Below, piece after piece: positions 4,581 through 55,989 of a stretch of DNA of 64,000 nt; position 1 is the stretch's first letter, and every line of letters begins with the position of its first letter. This DNA is from an uncultured Gaiellales bacterium (GTDB taxonomy: Bacteria; Actinomycetota; Thermoleophilia; BMS3ABIN01): assembly GCA_964497425.1 (NCBI GenBank), contig CAZCCR010000002.1, positions 40,336 to 104,335 of the forward strand, written 5' to 3'. The position numbers and the translations under genes are program-made. Under the pieces are notes generated by a model that saw nothing but the letters and a program-made list of their open reading frames with translations, was not told the DNA's origin and made no database searches.

Positions 4581-4906
4581 TCCCCACGGAGGATTCTTCT
4601 CAACCTCTCTTCAGCGTCCCCGGCCGGGACCCCGGCCAACAGGACTATTTTATCACGGGAGCGCTCCCCGCGCCGCAACCTAACCTGGTTCTTCCTCAGC
4701 CCCAGTTCCCGGGCCAGGAACCTCAGCAGCGCCTTGTTCGCCTTGCCCTCCACCGGAGGCGCCTGCAACCGCACCCTCAGCCGGCCGTCATGCTCCCCCA
4801 TGATCCGGTTTTTCTTCGCCCCGGGCGCCACCCTCAGGGCAAGCAGCGCCCCCTCGGGTGACGGCTCCAGCATCCTACCACTTGAAGTTTTTCTCTTCTG
4901 TGTCAA
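4577..4906 (-). CDS. DUF167 (YggU-like) protein
   Basis: 109 aa, RVRLQAPPVEGKANKALLRFLARELG motif typical of YggU/DUF167. The position after divIVA matches the conserved ylm/ygg cluster. Confidence 0.65.
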   Translation of the reverse strand: MTQKRKTSSGRMLEPSPEGALLALRVAPGAKKNRIMGEHDGRLRVRLQAPPVEGKANKALLRFLARELGLRKNQVRLRRGERSRDKIVLLAGVPAGDAEERLRRILRGE

Positions 4907-5618: not shown

Positions 5619-5642
5619 CCCTGTTTCCTCCCTGTGTCGTGT

Positions 5643-5909
5643 TTACAGGTTGCTGACCACGAAGCTCTGGATTATCCCCAATACCAGCAGCCCTACCAGC
5701 GGGCTGAAATCGATCGGGCCCGCCAGCGGTATCAGCCGCCGGAACAGCCCAAGATAGGGCTCGGTCACGTCATGGACGAAACGGAAGACCATCAGCACGG
5801 TACGGTTGGACGGGATCCCGGTCCAGCTGAATATGACCCTGATGATGATGAACACATAATATGTGTAAAACAGCGCGTTGACAAAGCCGCGTACGTCGAA
5901 ACCCGACAT
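5643..5909 (-). CDS. yggT: YggT-family membrane protein
   Basis: 88 aa, two TM helices, conserved position between sepF/proC and divIVA. Confidence 0.75.
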   Translation of the reverse strand: MSGFDVRGFVNALFYTYYVFIIIRVIFSWTGIPSNRTVLMVFRFVHDVTEPYLGLFRRLIPLAGPIDFSPLVGLLVLGIIQSFVVSNL

Positions 5910-5911
5910 GT

Positions 5912-6718
5912 CTATCCCAGTTCGACGGCACGGTTCACGGCTACCTGCACCGAGTCGATGATGGCTGACCTGACCCCGTCCCGCTCCAGCTGGGAGATGC
6001 CGGCGGCGGTGGTGCCCGCGGGTGAAGTGACCACGTGCCTCAGCTCGCTGGGGGAGAGGCCAGCCTCGATCAGCAGCGCCGCCGTTCCGGAAAGCATGGA
6101 GAAGGTCAGCTCCCTCGCCACCGCCCCCGGCAGTCCGGTCATCACGCCGGCGTCCACAAAGGCGTCGGCGATGACCGCCATGAAGCCGGGGCCGCTGCCG
6201 GCGATTGCCGTCGCCGCGGCGAACAGCTTCTCCGGCATGGGCACTACCCGCCCCAGGCCGCTGAACAGCTCGAATACCTGTTCTTCCGTCTCCGGGTCCA
6301 CGTTGCTGCCCGAGGCGAAGCAGATGGTGCCGGCGCCCACCTCCACCGCCACATTGGGCATCAGGCGGAAGACAGGCACGTCTTCGGGGAAGAGCGCTTC
6401 CAGGAAAGCGATGGTGCGGCCTGCCGCCACCGAGGCCAGTATCTTGCCCCTGCCGAACAGTTCCACGGTATCGGCGACGGCGGATTCCACGTCGTTGGGC
6501 TTCACCGCTATCAGCACCAGGTCCGAGCGGCTCGCCAGGTCGACGTTGCCGGTAGCGGCTGCGACCCCCGTCTCCCGGCTGAGTTGTTCCGCCGCCTCCT
6601 CCCGGGCGTCGGCGACGATGATGCGCGACGCCATGGCAGGGTCATGCCTCAGCCAGCCCCTGACGAAGGCCGAGCCGATGTTGCCGCAGCCGATGAGACC
6701 GATCTTCCCGATCTTCAT
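5912..6718 (-). CDS. proC: Pyrroline-5-carboxylate reductase
   Basis: N-terminal Rossmann motif IGLIGCGNIG, 268 aa, P5CR C-terminal dimerisation region. Confidence 0.85.
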   Translation of the reverse strand: MKIGKIGLIGCGNIGSAFVRGWLRHDPAMASRIIVADAREEAAEQLSRETGVAAATGNVDLASRSDLVLIAVKPNDVESAVADTVELFGRGKILASVAAGRTIAFLEALFPEDVPVFRLMPNVAVEVGAGTICFASGSNVDPETEEQVFELFSGLGRVVPMPEKLFAAATAIAGSGPGFMAVIADAFVDAGVMTGLPGAVARELTFSMLSGTAALLIEAGLSPSELRHVVTSPAGTTAAGISQLERDGVRSAIIDSVQVAVNRAVELG

Positions 6719-7233
6719 GACTGGTTGAAGAAGCCCTTCTCCATCAGCCGCGCCCGCTCTTCGGCGGAAACCTCGACATTGCGCGGTGTCAGCAGGAACA
6801 CCTTGTCCGCTACCCGCTGCATGCCGCCGTCGAGGGCGTAGGTCAGGCCACTGGAGAAATCGATCAGGCGCTTGGCAAGGTCCGTGTCCGCGCTCTGCAG
6901 GTTGAGGATGACCGGCACGTCCGCCTTGAACTTGTCCGCCACCTGCTGGGCGTCGTTGAAGCTGCGGGGCAGCACCAGGTGCACCCTCACGTTGGCCGGC
7001 GAAGCGGACCTGAGTGGTTTGATGCGGGAGACCTTGTTGTCCTCGGGATAGATGTCATCATAGTCGACGCGCTGCTTGCGCGCGGAACGGCTTATCTTGC
7101 GGACGTTGGGCCTCTCCCGATAGGAAGCTTCCAGCGAGCGGCTCGCCTCCAGGTGCTCCTCTTCGGCTCCGTATTCTTCCTCATCGAACCGGTCTTCCGC
7201 CAGCCCGAAATATACGAGTGTTTTTTGCCACAT
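6715..7233 (-). CDS. sepF: Cell division protein SepF (likely start at MWQKTL)
   Basis: MWQKTLVYFGL start motif, central acidic linker, C-terminal SepF domain (VILNLQ...DGGMQRV). Confidence 0.85.
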   Translation of the reverse strand: MWQKTLVYFGLAEDRFDEEEYGAEEEHLEASRSLEASYRERPNVRKISRSARKQRVDYDDIYPEDNKVSRIKPLRSASPANVRVHLVLPRSFNDAQQVADKFKADVPVILNLQSADTDLAKRLIDFSSGLTYALDGGMQRVADKVFLLTPRNVEVSAEERARLMEKGFFNQS

Positions 7234-7360
7234 GCTAGCTATGGCTACCACCTCCAGACATGAAGATTTGAATCATCTTTCTACCTGTCTTTTCCTATCC
7301 CTCTATAGTGGTCCCTTTATAGTGATATGGATATCTTTCCCGCACAGGAAGCACGTCCTC

Positions 7361-27430: not shown

Positions 27431-27502
27431 TCCGGCCTCCTCCCTCCGATGATAGCGTCATCCGACCATCGCCGGCAGTCGATGGTGCACCGCCGGCGGC
27501 AC

Positions 27503-28360
27503 TCACATCTCGTCCGGCAACCCCTCCAGTTCCGCCATGGAGAAGACGGGACCGTCGACGCAGACGTACTCCGGGCCCACGTTGCACCGTCCGCAAAGGC
27601 CGATGCCGCACTTCATCCGCCGCTCCAGTGTAGTGTATATCTGCCCGGGGGAGAAGCCCATCTTCTCCAGGCTCTCCAGCACGTAGCGGATCATCACCGG
27701 CGGGCCGCAGGTCACGGCGATATTGTTCTCCGGCGACGGGCCCTCTTCCTCCAGCACCGCCGGCACCAGGCCCACGCGCCCCTCCCAGTCGGGATGACCC
27801 GTGTCTATGGTGGTGATGAAATCCACGCCACTGCCCTGCTCCCAGTCGCGACAGTCGTCGAGGTAGCAGATGTCCCGGGGCGTGCGGGCGCCGTAGATGA
27901 GCTGCAGGTCGGCGTAGTCTTCACGGTGGTCCAGCAGGTGCAGAAAGAGCGACCGCAGGGGGGCCATGCCGATGCCGCCGCCGATGACCAGGATGCTCTT
28001 GCCTTTCCATAGGTCCACAGGGAAATGGTTGCCCATGGGCGCGCGCACCGTCACCCTGTCCCCAACGGACAGCTCGTGGATGGCGGTGGTGACCACTCCC
28101 GTCTTCATCACCGAGAACTGCAGGTACTCCCGCTCCGACGGCGGCGAGGCGATGGCGAAGGTGGACTCACCAGCGCCGGGGATGCCCAGCTGACCCGTCT
28201 GGCCCGGCAGGAAGCTGAATGACTGCATCAGCTCCCGGTCCTCGAAGGCCACCCGCAACGACTTGATGTTATGGGTCTCCCTGATGATGTCCAGCACCTC
28301 AGCCGTCTCCGGCGTCAACGGCCGGGAGGCCTCCATGCCCTTCCGCGGGATAGTCGACAT
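27503..28360 (-). CDS. flxA: FlxA-like NAD(P)H:flavin oxidoreductase subunit (FAD/NAD-binding plus C-terminal [2Fe-2S]; AsrB/HydG-like)
   Basis: Ferredoxin-reductase-type FAD/NAD fold, C-terminal CGIGLCGRCNV cluster motif. Last gene of the hdr-flx run. Confidence 0.7.
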   Translation of the reverse strand: MSTIPRKGMEASRPLTPETAEVLDIIRETHNIKSLRVAFEDRELMQSFSFLPGQTGQLGIPGAGESTFAIASPPSEREYLQFSVMKTGVVTTAIHELSVGDRVTVRAPMGNHFPVDLWKGKSILVIGGGIGMAPLRSLFLHLLDHREDYADLQLIYGARTPRDICYLDDCRDWEQGSGVDFITTIDTGHPDWEGRVGLVPAVLEEEGPSPENNIAVTCGPPVMIRYVLESLEKMGFSPGQIYTTLERRMKCGIGLCGRCNVGPEYVCVDGPVFSMAELEGLPDEM

Positions 28361-29379
28361 CAGTACTCACCCGCCCTTCTGATCACGTCGCGGATGTCCA
28401 GCCCCACGGGACAGCCGCGGATGCAACGGCCGCAGCCGGTACAGAGGATCGGCCCCTGGCGTGACGGATAGTAGCTGAACTTGTGGCCGATGCGATTGCG
28501 GTAGCGGTGGGCGATGGTCGGACGCGGGTTGTGCCCCGATGTCTCCAGCGTGTAGAGGAAGAACATGCAGGCGTCCCAGCTGCGACAGCGCTCGCCCTCG
28601 CGCCGGCCGGTCATCTCGTCGAACATGTTGAAACAGTAGCATGTGGGACAGGTGAAGGTGCAGTAGCCGCAGGAGACGCAGCGTGCGGTCACCTCGTCCC
28701 AGAAATCCAGGTCGGCGAATATATCACCCGTCAGCTTCTCCTCGAGCTCCTTCATGGGCACCTGGTCGTTGACCGCCAGCGGGGGCGGCTCCAGGTCGCT
28801 CTCCTCCCAGACTCCCAGCTGAAGCAGCTCCTCCCCGCGGGGACTGGACGCCCGCGCCAGGTAGCCGTCTCCGGCGGGGTATAGGATCACGTCCGACCCT
28901 TCGCTCGAGGCCGTGCCCTCCTCCCATGATGAGCAGAAGCAGGCGGCGTCCGCCTGCGTACAGGCCAGGGTGATCACCGTGAGGCCGCGCCGTCTCGAGC
29001 TGTATCCGGGGTCCTGGTATGACTTGCCCGGCGGTGGGTCGAAGAGGGCGTCCAGCACCGTCAGGGCGCGCGCGTCGCAGACGCGCGCGCCGAAGAGGAA
29101 CCTCTCTCCCTCCCCGTACCGCGGATCCGACAGCTCCAGCCGGTCGCCCTCCTCCGTCATGGCGTAACTGAAATCCATCAGCTTCTCCGTCGCCGGCAGC
29201 ACCAGCTCCTTGGCGGAGAGGGTGGTGAAACGCTCCAGTTCCAGGGAGGCGCCGGGCCGCCAGGGCCGGAAGAGGACCGTACCGGCGGCGCCATCCATCT
29301 GCCGCGGCGCCCAGACCTCTCCGCGGTCCGCCAAGGCGGTGAGTAGCCGGTCGATGTCGTCCGTGGCGATATATCTCAT
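28360..29379 (-). CDS. flxB: FlxB-like iron-sulfur subunit (AsrA/HydB-like, two [4Fe-4S] motifs); start approximate
   Basis: CVSCGYCTFTCPTCYC and CTGCGRCIRGCPVG motifs. Confidence 0.65.
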   Translation of the reverse strand: MRYIATDDIDRLLTALADRGEVWAPRQMDGAAGTVLFRPWRPGASLELERFTTLSAKELVLPATEKLMDFSYAMTEEGDRLELSDPRYGEGERFLFGARVCDARALTVLDALFDPPPGKSYQDPGYSSRRRGLTVITLACTQADAACFCSSWEEGTASSEGSDVILYPAGDGYLARASSPRGEELLQLGVWEESDLEPPPLAVNDQVPMKELEEKLTGDIFADLDFWDEVTARCVSCGYCTFTCPTCYCFNMFDEMTGRREGERCRSWDACMFFLYTLETSGHNPRPTIAHRYRNRIGHKFSYYPSRQGPILCTGCGRCIRGCPVGLDIRDVIRRAGEY

Positions 29380-30305
29380 GATTCCCGGTCCCAGATATCC
29401 TTGTCGGGATCGAAGACGAGCATGGGCGGCCTGGCGCCCAGGTCGGCGCCGGCGCTGTAGCCGAACATCTCCTCGATGGCGCGGTTCTGCTCCTGAAGCA
29501 GCAGCATCAGCGGGATGCCGACGGGACAGGCCCGTTCGCACTCGCCACAGCCCGTGCAGCGGCCGGCCAGGTGGCCTACCCGGATCAGCTGGATCATCTC
29601 CGACTGTTTGGCGTCCACGGCGCCGCCGGCCCAGTGGGGCACCTGCGTCTGCATGATGCAGACATCACGGCAGAAACACATGGGGCAGACCTCGCGGCAG
29701 GCATAGCAGCGGATACAGCGCGAGAACTGCTCCCGCCAGAAGACCCGGCGCTCCCGCGGCGTCAGCGAGTCGAACAATCGGCGCAGAGGGTGTCCCGGAC
29801 CCCCGCCCTCAGTCCTGTCCCCCGCCGCCTCGCCGATGACGTGATCGTAGATGTCCGGGTCAGCTTCCAGGCAGTTGTGGCATTTGGGCTGGATGAACAC
29901 TTCCCGTTCCACCTCCCGGCCGTCCACGGTGAGGGAGGCGCCGCCATCTTCGATGGCGGCGCCGTATCCGTAGCGCCGCCATATCTTCTTGACGTCCAGC
30001 ACGCCGCTACAGCCGACGCCGATGACCTCGACCCTCTCACGCTCCACCTCATGCTCGATTATCAGCTCCACCACGCTTCGTGCGTCGCAGCCCTTGGCGA
30101 CGATCCCCACCCGCTTGTCCTTCAGCCGCGGCAGGTGCACCGCCAGGTTGTGGACGCAGGTGCTGTCGAACAGGGCCCGCTCCGCCTCTTCTCCGTCACG
30201 GAAGCGGGCAGGAGCCGCCACCCCGCTGGCGGCATCGGTCTCCCAGCCCAGCACCAGGTCGGTCCTCTCCAGAACCTTCTTTATGACTTCGACCAGTTCG
30301 CTCAT
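29376..30305 (-). CDS. flxC: FlxC-like iron-sulfur subunit (FrhB/AsrA-like, two [4Fe-4S] motifs)
   Basis: CIRCYACREVCPMCFC and CTGCGECERACPVG motifs. Paralogous to the preceding gene. Confidence 0.65.
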   Translation of the reverse strand: MSELVEVIKKVLERTDLVLGWETDAASGVAAPARFRDGEEAERALFDSTCVHNLAVHLPRLKDKRVGIVAKGCDARSVVELIIEHEVERERVEVIGVGCSGVLDVKKIWRRYGYGAAIEDGGASLTVDGREVEREVFIQPKCHNCLEADPDIYDHVIGEAAGDRTEGGGPGHPLRRLFDSLTPRERRVFWREQFSRCIRCYACREVCPMCFCRDVCIMQTQVPHWAGGAVDAKQSEMIQLIRVGHLAGRCTGCGECERACPVGIPLMLLLQEQNRAIEEMFGYSAGADLGARPPMLVFDPDKDIWDRES

Positions 30306-30781
30306 GGCTCTCGCTCTTCCCTGTCGGCAGGTGCCACAGCCGCTGAATCATCAGCAACCGATCCCTTTGCAGTCCCGGCGTAGTCCAGCTTGCCAAGAGG
30401 CCTGACCGCCTCCGTGAAATCCGCCACCGTCTCGGCCCAGCGCGCCCCCTCGGAGGCGCTGACCCAGGTATAGCGGAAACGTTCCGGCTCGATGCCGTAA
30501 ACCTTCACCATACGCTTCAGCAGCTCCAGCCGCCGGCGCGCGTAGAAATTCCCTTCGTTGTAATGGCAGTCGCCGGGATGGCAGCCGCTCACCAACACCC
30601 CGTCCGCCCCCTCCTGGAACGCCTTCAGCACCAGCAGGGGGTTGACCCGGCCTGTGCAGGGCAGGCGCACGATGCGCATCTCCGCCGGCTGGGCCATGCG
30701 GGAGGTGCCGGCCATGTCGGCGCCGGCATAGGAACACCAGTTACAGAGGAATCCCACCAGCTTTATGCCTTCACCGCTCAC
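30302..30781 (-). CDS. mvhD: MvhD-like (FlxD) [2Fe-2S] electron-transfer protein
   Basis: Motif set LCNWCSYAGAD...RLPCTGRV...GCHPGDCHY is characteristic of the methyl-viologen-reducing hydrogenase delta subunit family that partners HdrA. Confidence 0.75.
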   Translation of the reverse strand: MSGEGIKLVGFLCNWCSYAGADMAGTSRMAQPAEMRIVRLPCTGRVNPLLVLKAFQEGADGVLVSGCHPGDCHYNEGNFYARRRLELLKRMVKVYGIEPERFRYTWVSASEGARWAETVADFTEAVRPLGKLDYAGTAKGSVADDSAAVAPADREEREP

Positions 30782-32739
30782 CTGAGCGCCTCCGTCACTT
30801 CCTGGATAAGCTGGTTGTCAGTATAGCCCCTCAGTGATATCACCGATGGCGGGCAGGCCACGTTGCAGAGCCCGCAGCCCTGGCAGAGAGACTCTATCAC
30901 CACCGCCACGTGGCGGCCGTCCCGCAATCCCTGTTCCTCGATGGCATGGTAGGGGCAGACCTCGCGGCATTTGAAACAGCCGATGCAGCGCATGTGGTTG
31001 ACCTCGGCGATCATGGGGCTGGTCTCCAGCTCGTCGCGGGAGAGCAGACCGATCACCTTGGCCGCGGCGGCGCTGGCCTGGGCGACGGTCCCGGGGATAT
31101 CCCTTGGCCCCTGGCAGGCTCCGGCCAGGAAGATACCGCCGGTAGTGGTCTCCACCGGCCGCAGCTTGGGATGGCTCTCGGAGAGGAAGCCGTATCCGTC
31201 GTAGGGGATGTTCAGCTTCTGCGCCAGACCCGTCACCCCTTCGGCGGCGTCGAGCCCGGTGGCCAGCACCACCAGGTCGGCTTCCACTTCCACGTTCTCA
31301 CCCGCCAGCGTGTCCACGCCCATCACCACCAGCTTGCCGTCCCGTGGATAGATCTTGCCCACCCGTCCCCGCAGGTAGATGGCGCCCGCTTCCTTCTGGG
31401 CCCGCCGGTAGAACTCCTCGTAGCCCTTGCCGCCGGCGCGCACGTCCATATAGAAGACGTATGATTGGGAATCGGGGATGTGCTCCTTTGTCAGGATGGC
31501 CTGTTTGGCGATGTACATGCAGCCCACGTTACAGCACAGCGGCCGTCCGATGGACTCGTCCCGGGAACCGACGCAGGAGAGGAACACGACATCTTTCGGC
31601 TCGGCCCCGTCCGAGGGCCGCCGGATATGGCCGCCGGTCGGGCCCGAAGCGGAGAGCATGCGTTCATACTGCATGGAAGTGATGACGTCCGGGTAGAGGC
31701 CGCCGCCGTAATGGGGATAGGCCTGCCGCCAGTCGAACAGCTCATACCCCGTCGCCACCACGATGGCGCCGAACTTCTCCGTGTGCAGTTCGTCCTCCTG
31801 TTCGTAATCCACCGCGTCCGCGGGACAGACCTTCTTGCAGATGCCGCACTTGCCCTTTATGAACAGGCGGCAGTGTTCCTTCCTCAGGGATGCCACCAGG
31901 GGCACGGCCTGGGGGAAGGCGATGGAGATGGCCTTCGATTCGCCAACGCCGGCGTTGAACTCGTCCGGCGCCGGGTTGGGGCACTTCTGCTCGCAGATCT
32001 GGCAGCCGGTGCACTTCTCCTCGTCGACGCAGGTGGCCTTCTTCCTGATGTCCACCTCGAAGTTGCCGATGTAGCCGCGCACCTGCTCCACCTCGCTGTT
32101 GACCATCAGCCTGATGTTCTCATGATGTTTCACTTCCACCATGCGGGGGGTGAGGATGCAGGACGAGCAGTCCAGGGTGGGAAAGGTCTTGTCCAGCCGC
32201 GCCATGTTGCCGCCGATGGTCGGCCCCTTCTCCACCAGGGTGACGGGCATGCCGGCGTCGGCGATGTCCAGCGCCGCCTGGATGCCGGCGACGCCGCCGC
32301 CGATGATCAGCACCTCGCCCGCCACCGGCACGCGGCTGGTGAACAGCGGTGTCTGCTCGCGCACCTTGGCCACGCCCATGGCCATCAGGTCGATGGCCTT
32401 CTCCGTCGCCACGTCCATGTCCGAATGTATCCAGGAGCAGTGCTCGCGGATGTTGACCATCTCCATCATGAAGGGGTTGATGCCAGCCTGGGCGACGGTG
32501 CGCTGGAAGGTGGTCTCGTGCATCCGCGGCGAGCAGGCGGCGATCACCACCCGGTCCAGGGCGTGCTTGTGCGCCGCCGCGACGATGGTGCGCTGTCCCG
32601 GGTCCGAACATGTGTACTGGATGGACTCGGCATGGACCACATCGCGCAGTGACATGGCGGCCTTCACCACCCTGTCGGTGGAGACTGTGGCGGCGATGTT
32701 GGAGCCGCACTGGCAGACGAAGACACCTATGCGCATCAG
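30778..32739 (-). CDS. hdrA: Heterodisulfide reductase subunit A-like flavoprotein (start at MRIGVFVCQCG; the ORF-track N-terminal extension overlaps hdrB)
   Basis: FAD GxGxxG (IIGGGVAGIQAALDIA), several CxxCxxCxxxCP ferredoxin motifs, ~650 aa. Confidence 0.85.
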   Translation of the reverse strand: MMRIGVFVCQCGSNIAATVSTDRVVKAAMSLRDVVHAESIQYTCSDPGQRTIVAAAHKHALDRVVIAACSPRMHETTFQRTVAQAGINPFMMEMVNIREHCSWIHSDMDVATEKAIDLMAMGVAKVREQTPLFTSRVPVAGEVLIIGGGVAGIQAALDIADAGMPVTLVEKGPTIGGNMARLDKTFPTLDCSSCILTPRMVEVKHHENIRLMVNSEVEQVRGYIGNFEVDIRKKATCVDEEKCTGCQICEQKCPNPAPDEFNAGVGESKAISIAFPQAVPLVASLRKEHCRLFIKGKCGICKKVCPADAVDYEQEDELHTEKFGAIVVATGYELFDWRQAYPHYGGGLYPDVITSMQYERMLSASGPTGGHIRRPSDGAEPKDVVFLSCVGSRDESIGRPLCCNVGCMYIAKQAILTKEHIPDSQSYVFYMDVRAGGKGYEEFYRRAQKEAGAIYLRGRVGKIYPRDGKLVVMGVDTLAGENVEVEADLVVLATGLDAAEGVTGLAQKLNIPYDGYGFLSESHPKLRPVETTTGGIFLAGACQGPRDIPGTVAQASAAAAKVIGLLSRDELETSPMIAEVNHMRCIGCFKCREVCPYHAIEEQGLRDGRHVAVVIESLCQGCGLCNVACPPSVISLRGYTDNQLIQEVTEALR

Positions 32740-33617
32740 GCCACCCCCGCCAGCCATCTGTCCAGGTCGGGCCTGACCGCCAGGGCGTCCAGGCCCAGCT
32801 CCTCGGGAGGGATGCCCAGGGCCAGGCCGATGGCCTGGCTGAAATAGAGCACCGGCATCCGCAGCGAGGCGCCGTAGGCGTAATTGATCTGCCCCTGCCG
32901 CAGATCCAGGTTCTGGTGACAGAGGGGACAGGCGGTGACCAGGGCGTCCAGCCCCGTGGACATGGCCACGTCGATGATGCGCCTGCTGGCCTCCAGCACG
33001 ATATCCTTGCGCGCCAGTCCCATGTAGGAGCCGCAGCATTCGGTCTTGAAGGGGAAATGGGGCACCTGGGCGCCCGTGGCCTCCAGCAGCGGCCGCATCT
33101 TGCGGGGGTCCCGCGGACTGTCGAAGCCCATGATGTCCGCGGGCCTGGTCAGCAGGCAGCCGTAATAGGCGCCCAGGCGCACGTTCCGCAGCCGCTCCCC
33201 CGCCCGCCGGCGCAGCTCCTCCGGCGTCACTTCCCGGTTGAGCATCTGCACGATGTTGAGCACCTCGGTCCGGTAGCGCACCTCTTCCCCCAGCAGTTCG
33301 CTGGTCTGCTCCCGGATCCGCTCATCGCCCGCTATCTTGTACTGGGCGTACTTGAGACGGTTGTAGCAGCCGGCGCAGGGGGCCACCACAGCGTCATGGC
33401 CGGCGCCGGCGATATGCAGGTTGCGACCGGGAAGGAGCACGCCCAGGGTCTCCGCCTTGTGATGGGGCGCCGGCGACGCTCCACAGCAGTTCCAGTCCTG
33501 AAGCTCGTCCAGCCGCACGCCCAGCGCCTCCGCCACCTTGCGGAAGGAGATGTCGTATTCCATGGCGCTGCTCTTGAGGGAGCAGCCCGGGTAATATGAA
33601 TAGGGCGTCTTCACCAC
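32736..33617 (-). CDS. hdrB: Heterodisulfide reductase subunit B-like (two CCG domains)
   Basis: YYPGCSL...CCG and CCGS...CPLC motifs. Confidence 0.85.
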   Translation of the reverse strand: MVKTPYSYYPGCSLKSSAMEYDISFRKVAEALGVRLDELQDWNCCGASPAPHHKAETLGVLLPGRNLHIAGAGHDAVVAPCAGCYNRLKYAQYKIAGDERIREQTSELLGEEVRYRTEVLNIVQMLNREVTPEELRRRAGERLRNVRLGAYYGCLLTRPADIMGFDSPRDPRKMRPLLEATGAQVPHFPFKTECCGSYMGLARKDIVLEASRRIIDVAMSTGLDALVTACPLCHQNLDLRQGQINYAYGASLRMPVLYFSQAIGLALGIPPEELGLDALAVRPDLDRWLAGVA

Positions 33618-34282
33618 TTGGGCCTCTCTTTCGCCCTTTTGAAGATGCGGCGCACCCCGGCGCGGTCACGGATGCGCGGCGGCACGATGTGGACCTTCCT
33701 CTTCCTCAGCACCAGCGGCACGAGGGAGAGGTCGTTGAAGGGCCTGCCGCTCATCAGGTTGAACCAGACAAGCAGGCTCGCCTCATGCAGCCTGCCGTGA
33801 CGGCGGACGTTGCGCAAGAAAAGGCGGCGGAAACGCCTCAGGCCCCGCTCCGACTCCTCGATGCCCCGCTCGTCGGCTATGTTCTTCGCCGTCTCGATGA
33901 CATCGGCGACATCTATGCGGATGGGACAGCGCGACGAACAGGTCATGCAGTCGTAGCAGAGCTGTGCCGTGGTGGAAGCCAGCGCCCGGTCCACCAGGCC
34001 CAGCTGCAGCATGCGCATGAAGACATGGGGTGGATTATCGAAGGCGCCGGCGGCGGCGCAGGTGGAGGAACAGGTTCCACACTGGTAGCAGTCAGAGACC
34101 TTCTGTCCCGAACGCCGCTCGATCTCCGTCACGGTCTCGCGCCCTTCCCTTATGCTTCTGTTGACATTTATCATTACCCTTTCTCCATTCATGAAAGCGA
34201 CAAACCCGGCGGCGCCCCTGTCGATGCCCTGGATAGAAAGATCCATCCCGGCCGTCCGCCGAGTTTGTGAAAAATTTCTCAA
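33611..34282 (-). CDS. hdrC: Heterodisulfide reductase subunit C-like (two [4Fe-4S] motifs)
   Basis: CYQCGTCSSTC and CYDCMTCSSRCP motifs. Confidence 0.8.
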   Translation of the reverse strand: MRNFSQTRRTAGMDLSIQGIDRGAAGFVAFMNGERVMINVNRSIREGRETVTEIERRSGQKVSDCYQCGTCSSTCAAAGAFDNPPHVFMRMLQLGLVDRALASTTAQLCYDCMTCSSRCPIRIDVADVIETAKNIADERGIEESERGLRRFRRLFLRNVRRHGRLHEASLLVWFNLMSGRPFNDLSLVPLVLRKRKVHIVPPRIRDRAGVRRIFKRAKERPKW

Positions 34283-34330
34283 TCTTTCGGTAGATTCTAA
34301 CAGGAGCTTTAGGGGAAAGTCAATTAAGGG

Positions 34331-35425
34331 TCAGGGGCGGGACGCGGCTGTGTAGTCGTGCCGGCGCTGGACCGGGTTCCAGCCCGCCGCCTCTATGGCC
34401 CGCACCAGCTCCTCCCTGCCGACCCGGTAACTGACGCCGGCGGCGGCTACCACGTTCTCCTCGATCATGGTGCTGCCCAGGTCGTTGGCGCCGAAGGCCA
34501 TGGCCACCTGGGCGACCTTCAGGCCCTGGGTGACCCATGAGGCCTGAATGTTGTCGACGTTGTCCAGGTAGAGGCGGCTCACCGCCAGGGTCATCAGGTA
34601 GTCGATGCCGCTGGAGCTGGCGGCCCCCTCCATGCGGGTATGTTCGTCCTGGAAGGTCCAGGGGATGAAGGCCCGGAAGCCGCCGGTCTCGTCCTGCAGG
34701 CTGCGGATGCGGCGCATGTGCTCTACCCGGTCGGACAGAGACTCGATGCCGCCGAACATCATCGTCGCCGTGGACCTCAGTCCCGCACGGTGCGCCTGTC
34801 GCATCACGCCCATCCAGGTGTCGCTGTCGATCTTGCGCGGGCTCATCCTCAGCCGTACGCCGTCGGAGAGGATCTCGGCGCCGCCGCCTGGCAGGGAATC
34901 AAGGCCGGCCCGGTGCATGCGCCCGAGCGCCTCCGATACCGGTATGCCACTCACCTGTGCTATGTGGTGAACCTCCGGCGGCGATAGGGAGTGGATGGTG
35001 ATGTCCGGGAAGCGCTGCTTGATACCGGCGAACAGGCCGCAGTAGTAATCGATGTCCAGCTTCGGGTGCAGCCCCCCCTGCATCATGATGCCGGTGCCGC
35101 CCAGCTCGATGGTCTCTTCTATCTTGGTGTATATCTCCTCGTCGCTGAGCAGGTAGCCCTCGCTGGAGCCCAGGGGGCGGTGAAAGGCGCAGAAATCACA
35201 GCCGGTGATGCATATGTTCGTGTAGTTGATGTTGCGGTCGACTACGTAGGTGACATCTCCGCCGGGTACCTTGCGCTGCCGCGCCGCGGCCGCCGCCCGT
35301 CCCACCGGCAGCAGCTGCCGGCTCGCCAGCAGCGCCTCGGCGTCTCCCTCGTCCAGGCGCTCTCCCGCCTCGGCCTTCTCCAGCGCCCGCTCGAGCCCTG
35401 CGTCCGTCACCGGCCGCTCATCCAT
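34331..35425 (-). CDS. Radical-SAM menaquinone (futalosine pathway) enzyme, MqnE/MqnC family
   Basis: CITGCDFCAF radical-SAM cysteine triad, ~360 aa, paralogous to the gene at 36334-37434 and flanking an mqnA-like gene. Confidence 0.75.
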   Translation of the reverse strand: MDERPVTDAGLERALEKAEAGERLDEGDAEALLASRQLLPVGRAAAAARQRKVPGGDVTYVVDRNINYTNICITGCDFCAFHRPLGSSEGYLLSDEEIYTKIEETIELGGTGIMMQGGLHPKLDIDYYCGLFAGIKQRFPDITIHSLSPPEVHHIAQVSGIPVSEALGRMHRAGLDSLPGGGAEILSDGVRLRMSPRKIDSDTWMGVMRQAHRAGLRSTATMMFGGIESLSDRVEHMRRIRSLQDETGGFRAFIPWTFQDEHTRMEGAASSSGIDYLMTLAVSRLYLDNVDNIQASWVTQGLKVAQVAMAFGANDLGSTMIEENVVAAAGVSYRVGREELVRAIEAAGWNPVQRRHDYTAASRP

Positions 35426-36344
35426 CGATGAACTCCAGCTCCGGCGCCGTCGCCGCCTCTCCTATCTCCACCGCCCGGCGGTAAAACCCGTCCAGGCCGC
35501 GACGGTACTCATCCGTGAGGTCATAGCGCAGCTTGCTGAAATAGGAGCGCAGCTGCCCGGGGCTGAAGGGATAGACATCCGCCGCCGCCCTGACCACCTC
35601 ATCCCTGTTCTCCGCGCAATAAGCGATGGAATATCCCAGCCGGTCCTGCACCTCCACCGTCTCACCGGGCCGACGCTGGAAGAAACTACGCCGCACCGCC
35701 CAGAGGGCGAAGACCATGGGCAGGCCGGTGAATCCCTTCCACTCCAGGCCCAGGTCATAACTGAACAGGCCGGTGCCGGCAGCCTCAGCCTCGGTACCGG
35801 CAGTCACGGTCGCCTTGCCGGCGCCGTAATACGCTTCCAGCGCCTGGTCACCGATGAGCAGGACTGCATCGTTGGTCTTGAGCGCCTCCGCCACACTGCC
35901 ATCCATGGGAGTATAGACGGGCTCGATGCCGTGCCTCTGCCTCAGCAGTATCTTCAAGAGCACCACCGAGGTGGCGCTCTGGCGCGTCAGAGCCACGGAC
36001 TCCACCTCTGCCATCGGCCGGCGGGAGACGAGGCGGATGCTGTCCACGGCGCCGTCGGCGGTGATGGAGACGTGGGGGAAGAAGAGCAGCTCATCGGCGT
36101 GGACGCCGCATTCGATGGATGAGACGGGGCTGATGTCCAGCTCCCCCGCCAACAGCTTGCGGTTCAGGTCCGTGGGCACGCCTCCCACCAGCCGGAAACA
36201 GCCCCAGCCCGCTCCCCTTTCCAGGCCGTAGTAAAGGGGATATCCGTTGAGGAACTCGAAATGGCCGATACGGATGGTAGACTGGTCCAGGCCCTCCGTC
36301 CGGCCGCCGGCGGCCCCCGTGCCCTTCTGTTCCTCAGTCCTCAT
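35418..36344 (-). CDS. mqnA: MqnA/MqnD-family menaquinone biosynthesis protein (chorismate dehydratase-like); start approximate
   Basis: IRIGHFEFLNGYPLYYGL N-terminal motif of the futalosine-pathway MqnA/MqnD fold (DUF178). Confidence 0.7.
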   Translation of the reverse strand: MRTEEQKGTGAAGGRTEGLDQSTIRIGHFEFLNGYPLYYGLERGAGWGCFRLVGGVPTDLNRKLLAGELDISPVSSIECGVHADELLFFPHVSITADGAVDSIRLVSRRPMAEVESVALTRQSATSVVLLKILLRQRHGIEPVYTPMDGSVAEALKTNDAVLLIGDQALEAYYGAGKATVTAGTEAEAAGTGLFSYDLGLEWKGFTGLPMVFALWAVRRSFFQRRPGETVEVQDRLGYSIAYCAENRDEVVRAAADVYPFSPGQLRSYFSKLRYDLTDEYRRGLDGFYRRAVEIGEAATAPELEFIDG

Positions 36345-37434
36345 AACGGCGCAAGATGTTGTAGAGGGTGTCCCGTTCCACCGGTACGCGACCGGCATCG
36401 CGGATGAGGCGGATCAGCTCTTCGCGGGTGATGGCCTCCTCCGTCTCGGCGCCGGCGGCATGGGTTATCTTCTCCTCCACCACGGTGCCGTCGATGTCGT
36501 TGACGCCGAAGTGCAGGGATATCTGCGCCAGCTTGACACCGATCATGATCCAGAAAGCCTTGATGTTGCGGAAGTTGTCCAGCATCAGGCGGCTGACGGC
36601 CAGCATCTTCAGGTCGTCGACGCCGGTGGGCGGCGACAGGTCCTGCAGCTCCGTGTTGGCGGGATGGAAGGAGAGGGGGATGAAGCTGCCGAAGCCGCCG
36701 GTCTCGTCCTGCAGCTGCCGAAGCCTGAGCAGATGGTCGATGCGCTCCTCGAGCGTCTCCACGTGGCCGTAGAGCATGGTGGCGTTGGACCTGATGCCGG
36801 CGCGGTGGGCGGTACGCATCACGTCCAGCCAGCCCTGCCCTGATATCTTGCGGCTGCATACCTGGCCGCGGACCCGCTCGGAGAAGATCTCGGCGCCGCC
36901 GCCGGGCATGCTGCCCAGCCCGGCTTCCTTCAGCTCCAGCAGCACCTGCTCGACGGTCTTGCCCGAGCGCCGGGCGAAGAAGGCTATCTCGGAGGCGGTG
37001 AAAGCCTGGATGTGGACCGAGGGGTCCAGACGGTGCAGGGCGGCGATCATCTCCACGTAGTACTCATATGGCAGTGACGGGTGCTCGCCGCCGACTATGT
37101 GCAACTCCGTGATGCCGTCCGCCAGGGAGGCGCGGGCACGGTCCAGCACCTCGTCCAGGGTCATGGTGTAGGCGCCCTCCTCTCCCTCACGGGCGCTGAA
37201 GGCGCAGAAGCGGCAGCTGTTGCCACAGACGTTGGTGTGGTTGATATGACGGTTGTTGACGAAATAGACCTCATCGCCGGCGTCGCGGCGACGCGCCAGG
37301 TCGGCCATGGCGCCAACGCGCAGCAGGTCGGGTGACCGCAGCAGTTCCAGTCCGTCGCCGGCGTCGAGCCGCTCTCCGGCCCTGACCTTCTCCTCGACCC
37401 TGTCCAGAGCCCCGGTGCCGGCATCCACAGCCAT
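36334..37434 (-). CDS. Radical-SAM menaquinone (futalosine pathway) enzyme, MqnC/MqnE family
   Basis: CGNSCRFCAF radical-SAM triad, 366 aa, paralog of 34331-35425. Confidence 0.75.
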   Translation of the reverse strand: MAVDAGTGALDRVEEKVRAGERLDAGDGLELLRSPDLLRVGAMADLARRRDAGDEVYFVNNRHINHTNVCGNSCRFCAFSAREGEEGAYTMTLDEVLDRARASLADGITELHIVGGEHPSLPYEYYVEMIAALHRLDPSVHIQAFTASEIAFFARRSGKTVEQVLLELKEAGLGSMPGGGAEIFSERVRGQVCSRKISGQGWLDVMRTAHRAGIRSNATMLYGHVETLEERIDHLLRLRQLQDETGGFGSFIPLSFHPANTELQDLSPPTGVDDLKMLAVSRLMLDNFRNIKAFWIMIGVKLAQISLHFGVNDIDGTVVEEKITHAAGAETEEAITREELIRLIRDAGRVPVERDTLYNILRRYED

Positions 37435-52322: not shown

Positions 52323-53783
52323 TCAGGGAGGCGGTTGCGGGAACCATATCTCGCCGCCCTGCTTGTCGAGGCAACTGGCGAACAGGGCGGTATGGAAGTG
52401 ACTTATCCCCGGCGGGACCATGAACCTCACCGTGAAATCGTGGCAGCCCCCGACCTCGATCCTGTCCGCCGGCGGCGGCAGCTCTCCGGCGACCTGTACT
52501 GAATCCGGGGTCAGCTGCACTTGCCTGACGGCCACATCCAGTGCCGGGACATCCCCGTAGTTGGATATGCCATAAGTGACGGAAAGCATCCCGGCCTGGT
52601 AATCCATCATGTCCCGCCAGAAAACCGACCGGATGGACAGACCCAGGACAGGCTTCACCCCCATGCTGTCCCACGGCGCCAGCTCCGCGCTGTAGATGTC
52701 CCAATCACCGTTGCGGTTGTCCTGCCAGACGACTGTATTGCCGTCTATGTCGGGGTTCACCTGGTCCCCCGAGGCGCCACACAGCAGTTGTTCCTGCCCC
52801 GTATCCAGATCCCTGACGTAGAGGTCCCATTCTCCGACCCAGCGGCCCTGGTCGTCCAGATGCCCGGCCCGGTTGTCCTGATACACAAGGATGTTACCAT
52901 CGGTCACAGGGTTGATCTGGTCGCCGGGCTCCTGGACCACGGGCGAACCCGGTGTGCCCGGTACGGCCTGGAAGATGTCCCATGTCTGTCCCGGCTCATT
53001 CAGCTTCTGTTGATAGATGACCCGGTCATCATCGATATCCGGTTCGCCACGCTGGTAGAGGCTGTCACCGCTTGAGGACATACCACCGCCCACCTGGGTC
53101 AGATAGGACCAGCTGCCGTCGCTCAGATCGTAATCGACCAGGAGCGGCTCGTAATACCTTGTACTGTAGCCACGCATCCTGACCCAGACAGCATGTTGCC
53201 CTTCCACATCCGGGTCGTAGCGCATCCCGTTACGCGAATAGCTGTCCAGCTTCCTGCTGCGTCCGCTTGTGAAATCCACGCGGCTGATAGTGCTGCCCCC
53301 GTCCCGTTCACCGGTGACCGCATAAGCGCCGGACAGCGACAGGTCCGATGCCGGTGTCGAGGTCACGCAGCTCCGGGCGCCGTCCGCCATCGACCGGCGG
53401 CAGACCCTCGAGTCGCTGTCCTGCCAGGCGACGAAGCCTTCGTCCAGGTCGGGACCGGCCCATACCCCCGGGCCATACACGGGTACTTCTCCCCCGTTAC
53501 CGCCCAGTTGCCTGGTGACCACCCATCCATCCGGAGAGCGCCCCAGGTCGTTGAACGCGACCACGCCGCCGTCCACTGCAGGGGCGACCTGGTCACCAGG
53601 CGATGTCGTCACCGGTGACTCCAGGACCCTCCAGGGCCCGTTGCCATCGGCTGTGGCAGGGCCTGTCTGCATCAACAGCAGCGGAGCGACACAGCAGATC
53701 GACGCTACCGCCAGCCATAGACGTTTCAGCAACCATGACTTCCCCCCGGTTGGACCGGCCCCTCTCTCCCGTCCCCCGGCCAT
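52323..53783 (-). CDS. Secreted PD40/TolB-like beta-propeller repeat protein with a C-terminal beta-sandwich-like domain
   Basis: Signal peptide (KSWLLKRLWLAVASICCVAPLLLMQTGPATA), then repeated D-Q-x-N/P-x-x-D-G-x-x-V/L-V/Y-x-D-x-R-x-G-x-W-D-I/L-Y units. Confidence 0.65.
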   Translation of the reverse strand: MAGGRERGAGPTGGKSWLLKRLWLAVASICCVAPLLLMQTGPATADGNGPWRVLESPVTTSPGDQVAPAVDGGVVAFNDLGRSPDGWVVTRQLGGNGGEVPVYGPGVWAGPDLDEGFVAWQDSDSRVCRRSMADGARSCVTSTPASDLSLSGAYAVTGERDGGSTISRVDFTSGRSRKLDSYSRNGMRYDPDVEGQHAVWVRMRGYSTRYYEPLLVDYDLSDGSWSYLTQVGGGMSSSGDSLYQRGEPDIDDDRVIYQQKLNEPGQTWDIFQAVPGTPGSPVVQEPGDQINPVTDGNILVYQDNRAGHLDDQGRWVGEWDLYVRDLDTGQEQLLCGASGDQVNPDIDGNTVVWQDNRNGDWDIYSAELAPWDSMGVKPVLGLSIRSVFWRDMMDYQAGMLSVTYGISNYGDVPALDVAVRQVQLTPDSVQVAGELPPPADRIEVGGCHDFTVRFMVPPGISHFHTALFASCLDKQGGEIWFPQPPP

Positions 53784-54208
53784 TCCCGGGGAATACCGAC
53801 TGCTGCTCTCTTCATACCCCTTGCCTTCCCGACACGGAACAGGAAAAACTTCACCACCGATCCTCCGCCGGGAATCACCGGCCACGTCCCCATGGACAAG
53901 CCACCCCTCAACCACTCTCCGCAACCGCATCTCTCCTCGCTTTCACCGCTCGCACTTCCCGCTTGCAGACATCATCGCCATCAATACTTCAGAACCTATT
54001 TGACCCGGGCCGCATCACCTCACAGGATTCACTTATCTCCGATGTCAGCTACTCTATCAACTGAGAAAAAAAAATTAATCGTACACTGGTATGATTCGCT
54101 CCCGGAAAAAGTCTTATATCAGAGTTTGTATCGCATGTTTAACGCTGGGGCCCGGCGGCTATCCTTTATTAAGCGGATTAACGAAGAACAGCGGCCTGGA
54201 GAGGGACT

Positions 54209-54793
54209 ATGACACTATCGGGAACGAGGGTAGCGGCACTGGCGGCCCCGGGTTTCGAAGACGCCGAACTCACTGAACCGGTCAGCGCCCTGGCCTATGC
54301 AGGTTCGGATGTAACCGTGGTGGCGCTCTCCGAAGAAGACAAACGCGGGCTCCGGGGCAAGCGGGGCACGGTCGTCACGGCTGACGCCACCATCGATGAG
54401 GTCGAGGAAGGCAGGTTCGACGCTCTGGTCATCCCCGGCGGCAAAAGCCCGGCCCACCTGCGCCGGGACCGGCGCGTGCTCGGTCTGGTCCAGGCCTTCA
54501 TGGATAAAGGCAAGCTTGTGGCGGCTATCTGCCATGGACCACAGGTGCTGGCGTCAGCCGGAGTCCTGGGGGGCAGGACCGCGACCGGCTATCGTTCCGT
54601 CAGGAAGGAAGTGGAAGCAGCCGGCGCGCGTTTCCTCGACCAGCCGGTGGTAGCGGACGGCAACCTGATAACATCGCGCAGGCCTGGTGATATCCCCCGC
54701 TTCATCAACGCCATCGTGGCTTACCTGGAGACGGAGAAGGAAAGCCGGCGCGGCCTTGAACCGGCGGGGGAGGAGATCGGTCAAAAAGGGTGA
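54209..54793 (+). CDS. DJ-1/PfpI-family class I glutamine amidotransferase-like protein
   Basis: AICHGPQVLASAGVL nucleophile-elbow motif, 194 aa. Confidence 0.8.
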   Translation: MTLSGTRVAALAAPGFEDAELTEPVSALAYAGSDVTVVALSEEDKRGLRGKRGTVVTADATIDEVEEGRFDALVIPGGKSPAHLRRDRRVLGLVQAFMDKGKLVAAICHGPQVLASAGVLGGRTATGYRSVRKEVEAAGARFLDQPVVADGNLITSRRPGDIPRFINAIVAYLETEKESRRGLEPAGEEIGQKG

Positions 54794-54817
54794 AGGACAA
54801 GGCACGGAAGTGAGGGA

Positions 54818-55357
54818 ATGAGCGCTCAGACTAAAGGAAAAGACAGGGAAGAGCGAAGGTGGATGAGCTGGGTTTACGGCGGCATCCTCCTGGGGCTGCT
54901 CAATACTTTCGCAGTAGCCACTTACGGCGCCCTGGGGGTCAGCCGTAACTATGTGGTGCTCGACAACCTGATCCTGCGGCTGTTCGGCTCTGATCTTGAC
55001 GGCAGCAACTCCTATCTGGGCGGGGTACCCTCGACAGCCGACTGGCTGTTCATGCTCAGCGTCGGCATGGTGGTCGGAGGCTTCCTGGCAGCCATCATCA
55101 AGGGAAAGCTAAACATGCGCTCCGTTCCCCGTCTCTGGGCCAGCCGTTTCGGTGAAAGCAAGGCCAAACGTTTTACCGCCGCCTTCGCCGGTGGTTTCCT
55201 GCTCCTTTTCGGCGCCAGGCTGGCGGGCGGCTGTACCAGCGGCCTGGTACTCAGCGGCGTCGCCCAGATGGCCCTGGCCGGCTTCCTCTTCGGCGCCGCC
55301 ATCCTGTTCTCGGGCATCGTCACCGCGAGGCTGCTCTACCGGAAGCAGGGGTCATGA
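54818..55357 (+). CDS. YeeE/YedE-family sulfur (thiosulfate) transporter, N-terminal half-protein
   Basis: Four TM helices with a GGCTSG motif; paired and translationally coupled to the next ORF. Confidence 0.7.
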   Translation: MSAQTKGKDREERRWMSWVYGGILLGLLNTFAVATYGALGVSRNYVVLDNLILRLFGSDLDGSNSYLGGVPSTADWLFMLSVGMVVGGFLAAIIKGKLNMRSVPRLWASRFGESKAKRFTAAFAGGFLLLFGARLAGGCTSGLVLSGVAQMALAGFLFGAAILFSGIVTARLLYRKQGS

Positions 55358-55989
55358 CGGCGCTGGCGGCGATAGCGGCCCAGGTGGGCATCGTCGGCGG
55401 CACCGACGCCCGGGCGCTGGTCATCGGCCTGCTGACGGGCATCGCCTTCGGCGCCATCCTGCAGCGCGCCGGAGCCTCCAGCTATCACATGATAGTGAAC
55501 ATGTTGCGCCTGAAGGACCTTACCATCATGAAGTTCCTCTTCCTGGCCATAGCCGTGGGCTCCGTCGGCATGTACGTGGTCGATGCGGTGGGGACCGCCC
55601 ACATCGGCATTGCGCCGGTCTACCTGCCCGGCATCATCATCGGCGGCCTCATCTTCGGCGTGGGCTGGGCGCTTTCCGGCTACTGCCCGGGGACGGTGCT
55701 GGTGGCCATGTCCGAGGGCAAGTCTGACGCGGCGGTCACCGTCCTCGGCGGACTGGCGGGAGCCTTCACCCTGGCCCTGACCTGGGATTACCTCAGGCCG
55801 GCGCTGGTCGATCCCCTGAACTACGGGGGCAAGAGCCTCTACGATGCCATCGGGGCCGATCCCCTGCCTGTCGCCTTCGCCCTGGCGGCGGTGATCATCG
55901 CCTTCGTCATCTACCTGGACCGCGTGGACAGGAAGCCGGAGCGCCAGGCGGGGAAGCGCCTCTCCCCCACAGCGCACCCAGGCCGCTGA
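55354..55989 (+). CDS. YeeE/YedE-family sulfur transporter, C-terminal half-protein
   Basis: TM helices with a GYCPG motif; start overlaps the previous stop (ATGA). Confidence 0.7.
   Translation: MTALAAIAAQVGIVGGTDARALVIGLLTGIAFGAILQRAGASSYHMIVNMLRLKDLTIMKFLFLAIAVGSVGMYVVDAVGTAHIGIAPVYLPGIIIGGLIFGVGWALSGYCPGTVLVAMSEGKSDAAVTVLGGLAGAFTLALTWDYLRPALVDPLNYGGKSLYDAIGADPLPVAFALAAVIIAFVIYLDRVDRKPERQAGKRLSPTAHPGR

Follow-up and report, generated by a model that had tools for sequence, protein, structure and literature searches.

The described systems closest to the locus treated here are the Flx-Hdr operons of Desulfovibrionaceae, such as DVU2399-2404 of D. vulgaris Hildenborough and hdrCBA-flxDCBA of Bilophila wadsworthia. 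Three reports (PMC12125255; PMC4759654; PMC10504309) describe a complex that oxidizes NADH and bifurcates the electrons to ferredoxin and to DsrC, and they name DsrC as the disulfide acceptor in sulfate reducers (Desulfovibrio). Flx-Hdr is common in sulfate reducers, and partial versions are found in Gram-positive Desulfotomaculum (PMC4759654). The stretch of DNA analyzed here, called the window below, is 64,000 nucleotides of contig CAZCCR010000002.1 (positions 40,336 to 104,335, assembly GCA_964497425.1) from an uncultured Gaiellales bacterium. Between 27503 and 37434 its minus strand carries ten genes in the order mqnE, mqnA, mqnC, hdrC, hdrB, hdrA, mvhD/flxD, flxC, flxB, flxA. We consider it likely that they belong to two or more units: pnp-M16-mqnEAC, and a separate seven-gene hdrCBA-flxDCBA operon that encodes an Flx-Hdr complex and has its own promoter and probable Rex-type control.

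The relationship to the Desulfovibrionaceae operon covers all seven subunits, their order, their Fe-S cysteines and both CCG motifs. With FlxC as the seed, a genome scan produced 80 loci, and all window proteins were compared with these loci by tblastn. In about 58 loci of Desulfovibrionaceae and other Thermodesulfobacteriota, hdrC-hdrB-hdrA-flxD-flxC-flxB-flxA lie on one strand in the window's order, and each of the seven proteins aligns there in whole or for the most part (coverage >50%), with identities of 33-69%. The FlxC homologues in Desulfovibrio, Pseudodesulfovibrio, Maridesulfovibrio and Bilophila align over their full length at 38-41% identity, and some of them are fused to MvhD. The cysteines were followed through an alignment of 13 sequences, made of the window proteins with five actinobacterial orthologues and seven from Desulfovibrionaceae or other Thermodesulfobacteriota. 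Predicted Fe-S ligands are invariant in all 13 for HdrC (8 cysteines), HdrB (10, taking in both CCG motifs), MvhD (5), FlxC (15) and FlxB (15). The [2Fe-2S] cysteines of FlxA (C251, C256, C259 and C267) are kept just as completely, and the cysteines of HdrA are also conserved. The original prediction, made from the window's letters alone, had matched the run to the FlxABCD-HdrABC complex, and the seven contiguous subunits, collinear with the Desulfovibrionaceae hdrCBA-flxDCBA, bear this out. It had also called the order reversed, with hdr first. That was wrong, because the name of the complex had been read as a gene order; hdrCBA-flxDCBA is the order in every Desulfovibrionaceae locus examined and is the way the operon is written in the literature (PMC12125255).

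The differences from the Desulfovibrionaceae systems lie in the host and in the surroundings of the genes. The window's host is an actinobacterium (Thermoleophilia). Its operon adjoins mqnEAC, whereas that of Desulfovibrionaceae adjoins alcohol dehydrogenase genes. A Rex-consensus operator and a leader hairpin are found on the window side only; for the operator, 51 Desulfovibrionaceae loci were checked upstream of hdrC at up to 2 mismatches, and none has such a site. FlxD and FlxC are separate proteins in the window, unlike those of Bilophila and some other genomes, where MvhD-FlxC fusions of 476-482 aa occur (proteins P0078, P0101 and P0119). A fusion of a different kind, HdrC-HdrB of 527 aa, is encoded at L089:15894-17477, a locus of the sister actinobacterial lineage described below.

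More distant systems share parts of the module. The methanogen MvhAGD-HdrABC and Fdh-Hdr complexes (PDB 5ODC, 8RVU and 7BKB) have full-length homologues of HdrA, HdrB, HdrC and MvhD; HdrA matches methanogen HdrA (5odc_A) with 674 bits and HdrB matches methanogen HdrB (8rvu_b) with 132 bits, each over the full length. FlxC, in its C-terminal half with the Fe-S domain, is similar to FdhB (7bkb_E), the subunit docked onto Hdr in the Fdh-Hdr complexes. The window differs from the methanogen complexes in having neither the MvhAG hydrogenase nor FdhA, its input being the NAD(P)H flavoprotein FlxA together with FlxB, and the CoM-S-S-CoB substrate is not expected in a bacterium. The MetFV-HdrABC-MvhD system of acetogens and the mvhD/hdrABC clusters of Wood-Ljungdahl Actinomycetota have the HdrABC and MvhD core in common with the window and belong to anaerobic lineages of Gram-positive type. 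A MetFV-Hdr assignment was rejected since no metF or metV is adjacent, flxCBA standing there instead. The sHdr system of sulfur oxidizers (hdrC1B1A-hyp-C2B2) also shares Hdr-like CCG and flavoprotein subunits, and it too was set aside. The window's HdrA is of the long methanogen type (the 674 bits to 5ODC compare with 155 bits, partial, to sHdrA, 6TJR), there is a single hdrC and a single hdrB, and flx genes are present.

The reading that departs furthest from Flx-Hdr would have flxB and flxA encode AsrA and AsrB of anaerobic sulfite reductase, or else beta and gamma subunits of a NiFe hydrogenase of the sulfhydrogenase type, merely lying beside an Hdr module. It draws on real similarity, in that the top profile and structure matches of FlxA and FlxB are to HydG/HydB and AsrB/AsrA, and the fold and cofactor motifs are common to these proteins and to Pyrococcus furiosus sulfhydrogenase I HydB/HydG (PDB 9NEZ), with 217 bits for FlxA against the gamma subunit 9nez_C and 119.5 bits for FlxB against the beta subunit 9nez_B. 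The scores nevertheless stay under every equivalog cutoff, at 139 against 323 for AsrA (TIGR02910), 171 against 289 for AsrB (TIGR02911), 120 against 750 for HydB and 217 against 650 for HydG. The run and its conserved flanks contain neither asrC, which encodes the sirohaem subunit, nor a gene for a large or small hydrogenase subunit, and both AsrABC and a NiFe hydrogenase were rejected on these two counts. The flxDCBA genes moreover overlap one another by 1-4 nt and are collinear with flxDCBA of Desulfovibrionaceae. We regard this reading as extremely improbable and as largely refuted already. The hidden Markov model searches uphold the Hdr and MvhD assignments and the HydB/AsrA-like and HydG/AsrB-like ones, with FlxA the single FAD/NAD/[2Fe-2S] protein that had been foreseen as AsrB/HydG-like. 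Of the two proteins that had been described as AsrA/HydB-like, this description suits FlxB; it does not suit FlxC, which has the FdhB-like C-terminal half and shares only an Fe-S module of about 100 aa with FlxB. Because the orthologues are collinear, the cluster ligands are kept, the Asr and Hyd models fall below their cutoffs, and asrC, hydrogenase and metFV genes are absent, the seven genes are assigned from sequence as a complete set of FlxABCD-HdrABC (Hdr-Flox) type. By the same assignment the module is an ordinary complete NADH-linked Flx-Hdr operon and no new type of system. The two-CCG site of HdrB is likely the disulfide-reducing site, HdrA likely the electron-bifurcating site, and FlxA likely the point of entry for NADH.

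Table 1. Genes and regulatory features of the mqn-hdr-flx region. Positions are those of the window, except in the last row, where they refer to the related loci named.
Feature	Position	Strand	Description
mqnE	36334..37434	-	aminofutalosine synthase, radical SAM; TIGR03700 521 bits (cutoff 434.55); PF04055, PF19288
mqnA (MqnA/MqnD family)	35418..36344	-	PF02621 217 bits; 11-nt overlap with mqnE
mqnC	34331..35425	-	cyclic dehypoxanthinyl futalosine synthase, radical SAM; TIGR03699 464 bits (cutoff 428.1); 8-nt overlap with mqnA
sigma-70-like promoter of hdr-flx	34294..34323	-	TTGACT, 18-nt spacer, TAGAAT, TG before the -10
Rex-consensus-like palindromic operator	34265..34282	-	TTGAGAAATTTTTCACAA; 18 bp; 12 nt downstream of the -10; one mismatch to TTGTGAANNNNTTCACAA
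leader hairpin and U-rich run	34193..34264	-	ACUCGGCGG...CCGCCGGGU; between operator and hdrC ribosome-binding site; terminator/attenuator-like
hdrC (187 aa)	33611..34174	-	two CX2CX2CX3C [4Fe-4S] motifs; PF13534, PF13183, TIGR03290
hdrB (293 aa)	32736..33617	-	PF02754 twice; two complete CCG motifs
hdrA (652 aa)	30778..32736	-	FAD and multi-[4Fe-4S] subunit; NF040770 HdrA2 801 bits
mvhD/flxD (159 aa)	30302..30781	-	[2Fe-2S] electron connector; PF02662 177 bits
flxC (309 aa)	29376..30305	-	Fe-S protein; 7bkb_E 94 bits
flxB (339 aa)	28360..29379	-	HydB/AsrA-like Fe-S protein; PF17179 106 bits
flxA (285 aa)	27503..28360	-	FAD/NAD(P)H-binding [2Fe-2S] protein; PF00175, PF10418, PF00970
genes inserted between mqnC and hdrC promoter	L012:2482-3564, L015:4538-5626, L007:5231-5908		ACR3-like 360-aa membrane protein (judged from sequence) and methyltransferase-like open reading frame

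The ten genes are all present where the original prediction had placed them and, by profile matches, belong to the families it had named; pnp and an M16 peptidase gene lie upstream, as it had also said, and a SepF gene lies elsewhere in the window. The window corresponds to the JGI metagenome contig Ga0256747_1000013, and our gene calls for the run agree with the public ones. The longest open reading frames of hdrA (753 aa) and flxB (393 aa) are over-extended, and the shorter lengths in Table 1 follow from family matches and the public calls. The start of mqnA at 36344 likewise agrees with the public call (JGI names the product chorismate dehydratase), and mqnE starts 1 nt past the stop codon of the M16 peptidase gene. 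Downstream of the run come genes for an MBL-fold protein, a prepilin peptidase (pilD) and a TPR protein, and then the mraZ/mraW cell-division cluster. All junctions had been expected to be overlaps or gaps of 50 nt or less. This is right for eight of the nine internal junctions, which are overlaps of 1-11 nt, and within hdr-flx every junction overlaps (1-7 nt), an arrangement of translational coupling. It fails at mqnC-hdrC, where the genes are 156 nt apart.

The length of that spacer depends on the start chosen for hdrC. The ATG at 34174 was picked by the N-terminus conserved in relatives and by its GGAGAAAGGG ribosome-binding site. A TTG start at 34282, which would give a protein of 223 aa and a spacer of 48 nt, was rejected on two grounds, its position within the operator and the lack of conservation of the N-terminal extension that it would add. 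The 156-nt spacer has a GC content of 50%, against about 65% around it. Its promoter begins 8 nt past the mqnC stop codon, agrees with the consensus at 10 of 12 positions, and is the top promoter-like site between 26.5 and 41.8 kb. From the window's clade 20 loci were obtained, 17 of which include the mqnC-hdrC junction, and the promoter is kept in them. The -35 is TTGACT or TTGACA in all 17, with a spacing of 17-18 nt, and a TAnAAT-like -10 hexamer agrees at 4 or more of its 6 positions in 16. The palindrome behind it matches the Rex operator consensus TTGTGAANNNNTTCACAA (PMC5355995) and is the sole match in the 64 kb at up to 3 mismatches, where 0.04 would be expected at up to 2. In all 17 clade loci it stands in the same place, starting 9-13 nt after the -10; five of them have two sites 21 bp apart, one of each pair overlapping the -10. 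No further site is found elsewhere in the clade loci, of about 20 kb each, at up to 2 mismatches. Since the site lies just downstream of the -10, a repressor role suits it. In a Desulfovibrio genome (sp. ZJ369; L060:12599-13204, minus strand) a Rex homologue with 36% identity to the Rex of sister-lineage locus L090, introduced below, is encoded about 2.5 kb downstream of flxA, and hdrC has no Rex box ahead of it in that locus.

Between the operator and the ribosome-binding site, the 131-nt leader of the window folds at -48 kcal/mol (z = -3.8). Each of the 17 clade loci has a GC-rich hairpin and, behind it, a T-run (L009:6016-6089 and L011:5934-6009 are two instances). In 14 of these the hairpin shares a basal stem, GCUCGNCGG/CCGNCGGG, ahead of the T-run; in the remaining three the T-run follows a hairpin of another kind. 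RNAalifold gives the basal stem 11 pairs, three of them with compensatory changes. No Rfam family matched the hdrC leader in a permissive-threshold search of 26.5-41.8 kb. The hairpin could attenuate transcription, block read-through from mqnC or form the end of a short RNA, and any of the three argues against a simple co-transcription of mqnEAC with hdr-flx. At the other end of the operon, the 72-nt spacer between flxA and the MBL-fold gene (27431-27502, minus strand) begins with a GC-rich near-palindrome, GTGCCGCCGGCGGTGCAC. No T-run accompanies it, and the hdr-flx transcript may have its 3' end here.

Three clade loci (L007, L012 and L015) have one more gene inserted after mqnC and ahead of the hdrC promoter, and in each the promoter and operator remain as a unit with hdrC. 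The hdr-flx set is thus a neighbor of the mqn genes and is not fused to them, because a promoter of its own precedes it, together with an operator of redox type and a leader hairpin. The original prediction had described one gene run fused and co-transcribed with quinone biosynthesis, and such a fusion is not supported: the spacer holds these elements in 17 of 17 loci, and genes are inserted between the two sets in the three loci named and in the sister lineage described next.

The neighborhood as such is real and is conserved within Actinomycetota. As far as each clade locus reaches, the block pnp-M16-mqnE-mqnA-mqnC-hdrCBA-flxDCBA-MBL-pilD-TPR-mraZ-mraW is kept. The housekeeping flanks pnp, M16, MBL, pilD and mraZ are conserved as strongly as the adjacency to mqn, and because these unrelated flanks are equally conserved, the clade-wide adjacency alone says little about function; inherited gene order explains it equally well. 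A sister lineage gives a longer view. Its MqnA is 45-48% identical and its outer flanks are different (moa genes, or ubiD-ubiA-ubiE). In 4 of its 6 loci, hdr genes lie downstream of mqnEAC, with mvhD and flx genes next wherever the locus is long enough. The distance from mqnC to hdr is filled by 2-7 kb of pdxST, or of an ABC transporter and an aminotransferase. The mqn-hdr/flx neighborhood is old in this part of Actinomycetota, yet it is no operon. No mqn genes lie within 10 kb of hdr-flx in the approximately 58 non-actinobacterial loci. One sister-lineage locus, L090, has a rex gene (4772-5488; PF06971 and PF02629) directly upstream of ubiD-ubiA-ubiE-mqnE-mqnA-mqnC, a position that hints at redox control of menaquinone synthesis there. 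At up to 2 mismatches, the Rex consensus operator was found neither in L090 nor anywhere else in the six loci of the sister lineage.

Whether the adjacency reflects function can be put as an explanation in its own right, in which the Hdr-Flx complex gives electrons to menaquinone or takes them from it, directly at the HdrB CCG site or by way of a thiol carrier that a quinone-linked complex re-oxidizes, and the mqn genes lie next to it for that reason. The persistence of the mqnEAC-hdr/flx neighborhood in about 17 clade loci speaks for this, as does its recurrence in 4 of 6 sister-lineage loci despite the spacers and different outer flanks, and so does the rex gene placed directly before the ubi-mqnEAC genes of L090. 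So too does the top NCBIfam match of HdrB, which is SdhE, the CCG-type subunit of methylmenaquinol:fumarate reductase. That match, at 153 bits, is far under its 500-bit cutoff and is nearly tied with true HdrB at 146 bits, while the full-length alignment is to the methanogen HdrB. The module lacks any subunit that would sit in the membrane or bind quinone. Between the two gene sets stand a promoter, an operator and a terminator-like hairpin, and several genomes have put unrelated genes there as well (ACR3-like, methyltransferase, pdxST, ABC transporter). Inherited order, which the equally conserved pnp, M16, MBL, pilD and mraZ attest, suffices for the adjacency, and the non-actinobacterial hdr-flx loci do without mqn neighbors. 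We give a functional coupling little credence, and the tie to the menaquinone pool that had been proposed for the module is not supported. A broader version would make the whole region, in Thermoleophilia of the BMS3ABIN01 type, one old functional respiratory neighborhood of Flx-Hdr and mqn. Flx-Hdr would escape repression by Rex at high NADH and would feed NADH electrons to a DsrC-like thiol/disulfide carrier that is cycled by menaquinone-dependent DsrMK/Qmo, with the hairpin as a new attenuator gating the flow. This picture we think rather unlikely. A further possibility keeps the Flx-Hdr type complex and changes its partner, so that it would serve the redox balance of fermentation or of the Wood-Ljungdahl pathway, by confurcation or bifurcation with a non-DsrC thiol, or with NADPH, and not sulfate respiration; a role of this kind has been suggested for the mvhD/hdrABC clusters that other anaerobic Actinomycetota carry. 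Related uncultured Wood-Ljungdahl Actinomycetota do have mvhD/hdrABC clusters (PMC7325909; PMC12917137), a published table gives no dsrC for BMS3ABIN01 and SURF-19 (PMC10591310), and the Desulfovibrio complex runs in reverse during fermentation (PMC12125255). Against it, no metF or metV adjoins the module, and the nearest named relatives encode Sat, AprAB, Qmo, DsrAB, DsrD and DsrMK (PMC10591310). We hold this alternative to be unlikely.

Those relatives define the metabolic setting. The closest relatives of FlxC and MqnA, at 55-77% identity, are in metagenome-assembled genomes labelled Thermoleophilia, Actinomycetes, Gaiellales and "bacterium BMS3Abin01", and pnp and HdrA are 92% identical to BMS3Abin01 proteins. 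GTDB places BMS3Abin01 and SURF_19 (locus L013) in the Thermoleophilia order BMS3ABIN01. According to Diao et al. 2023 (PMC10591310), BMS3Abin01 and SURF-19 encode sat, aprAB, qmo genes, dsrAB, dsrD, dsrMK and dsrL and are putative sulfate/sulfite reducers, and a 2026 study again predicts sulfate reduction for the order. The host is most likely a member of this order and a predicted sulfate reducer, and it probably does reduce sulfate. A Flx-Hdr module had been called unusual for a Gram-positive-like lineage. This loses much of its force, the nearest named relatives belonging to an order with predicted sulfate reduction by way of Sat/AprAB/Qmo/DsrAB/DsrMK. Since the relatives are predicted sulfate reducers and Flx-Hdr is common among such organisms, the module fits the lineage and is not an anomaly. 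None of the papers we found names Flx-Hdr for this lineage, and in related Wood-Ljungdahl Actinomycetota only mvhD/hdrABC clusters have been described (PMC7325909; PMC12917137). The locus adds a complete NADH-bifurcating Flx-Hdr module to the predicted energy metabolism of these uncultured predicted sulfate reducers, where in related Actinomycetota the genes had been recorded just as mvhD/hdrABC.

We therefore return to the two-unit arrangement, for which gene content, orthology, cofactor motifs and the conservation of promoter, operator and hairpin are obtained directly, and for which the electron path, the substrate, the identity of the regulator and the transcript boundaries are proposed on top of these. 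One unit would be pnp-M16-mqnE-mqnA-mqnC, a tightly packed set of housekeeping and futalosine-pathway menaquinone genes. The other, hdrC through flxA, would encode a soluble complex of FlxABCD-HdrABC type. In it, FlxA would oxidize NADH with its FAD and [2Fe-2S] cluster, and the Fe-S clusters of FlxB and FlxC and then the [2Fe-2S] cluster of FlxD/MvhD would carry the electrons to the bifurcating FAD of HdrA. From there the ferredoxin-like domains of HdrA would hand one electron on to ferredoxin. HdrC would pass the second to the two non-cubane clusters of HdrB, the proposed site for reduction of a disulfide, either on a protein or in a small molecule. The overall reaction would be reversible. 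Transcription of hdr-flx would start from a promoter of its own, the sigma-70-type one between mqnC and hdrC. A Rex-type regulator that senses NADH/NAD+ would probably repress from the site just past the -10, so that expression would probably follow the NADH/NAD+ ratio, and the leader hairpin with its U-run could attenuate transcription or block read-through from mqnC. The conserved promoter, Rex-type operator and leader hairpin together make a concrete regulatory model that is open to test.

Several observations tell against parts of this arrangement. No rex gene is present in the 64-kb window or in the clade loci, and Rex homologues, though common in Thermoleophilia-labelled metagenome-assembled genomes when the L090 Rex is used as query, are none of them linked to this genome. 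The palindrome also fits a CRP-type site, TGTGA-N6-TCACA, and its left half-site is degenerate. The U-run that follows the hairpin is weak in the window (UUUGUCGCUUUC) and did not pass a simple terminator scan. For the disulfide substrate, there is no dsrC in the window, and the table in Diao et al. 2023 (PMC10591310) lists dsrC as 0 for both genomes of the order. The taxonomic placement is itself built on protein identity and synteny to named metagenome-assembled genomes.

Elsewhere in the window, two long frames with coding-like GC3 have no Pfam match at E<=1e-5. One encodes 535 aa (52323-53930, minus strand). The other encodes 718 aa (4572-6728, plus strand) and shares 14 nt with the end of the SepF gene, which runs on the opposite strand (6715-7251). 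The plus strand at 54209-55989 carries a DJ-1/PfpI gene and, after it, two adjacent half-size genes of the YeeE/YedE "sulphur transport" type (PF04143). The paired PF04143 genes may represent a split transporter for thiosulfate or another sulfur compound, in a lineage predicted to respire sulfur compounds.

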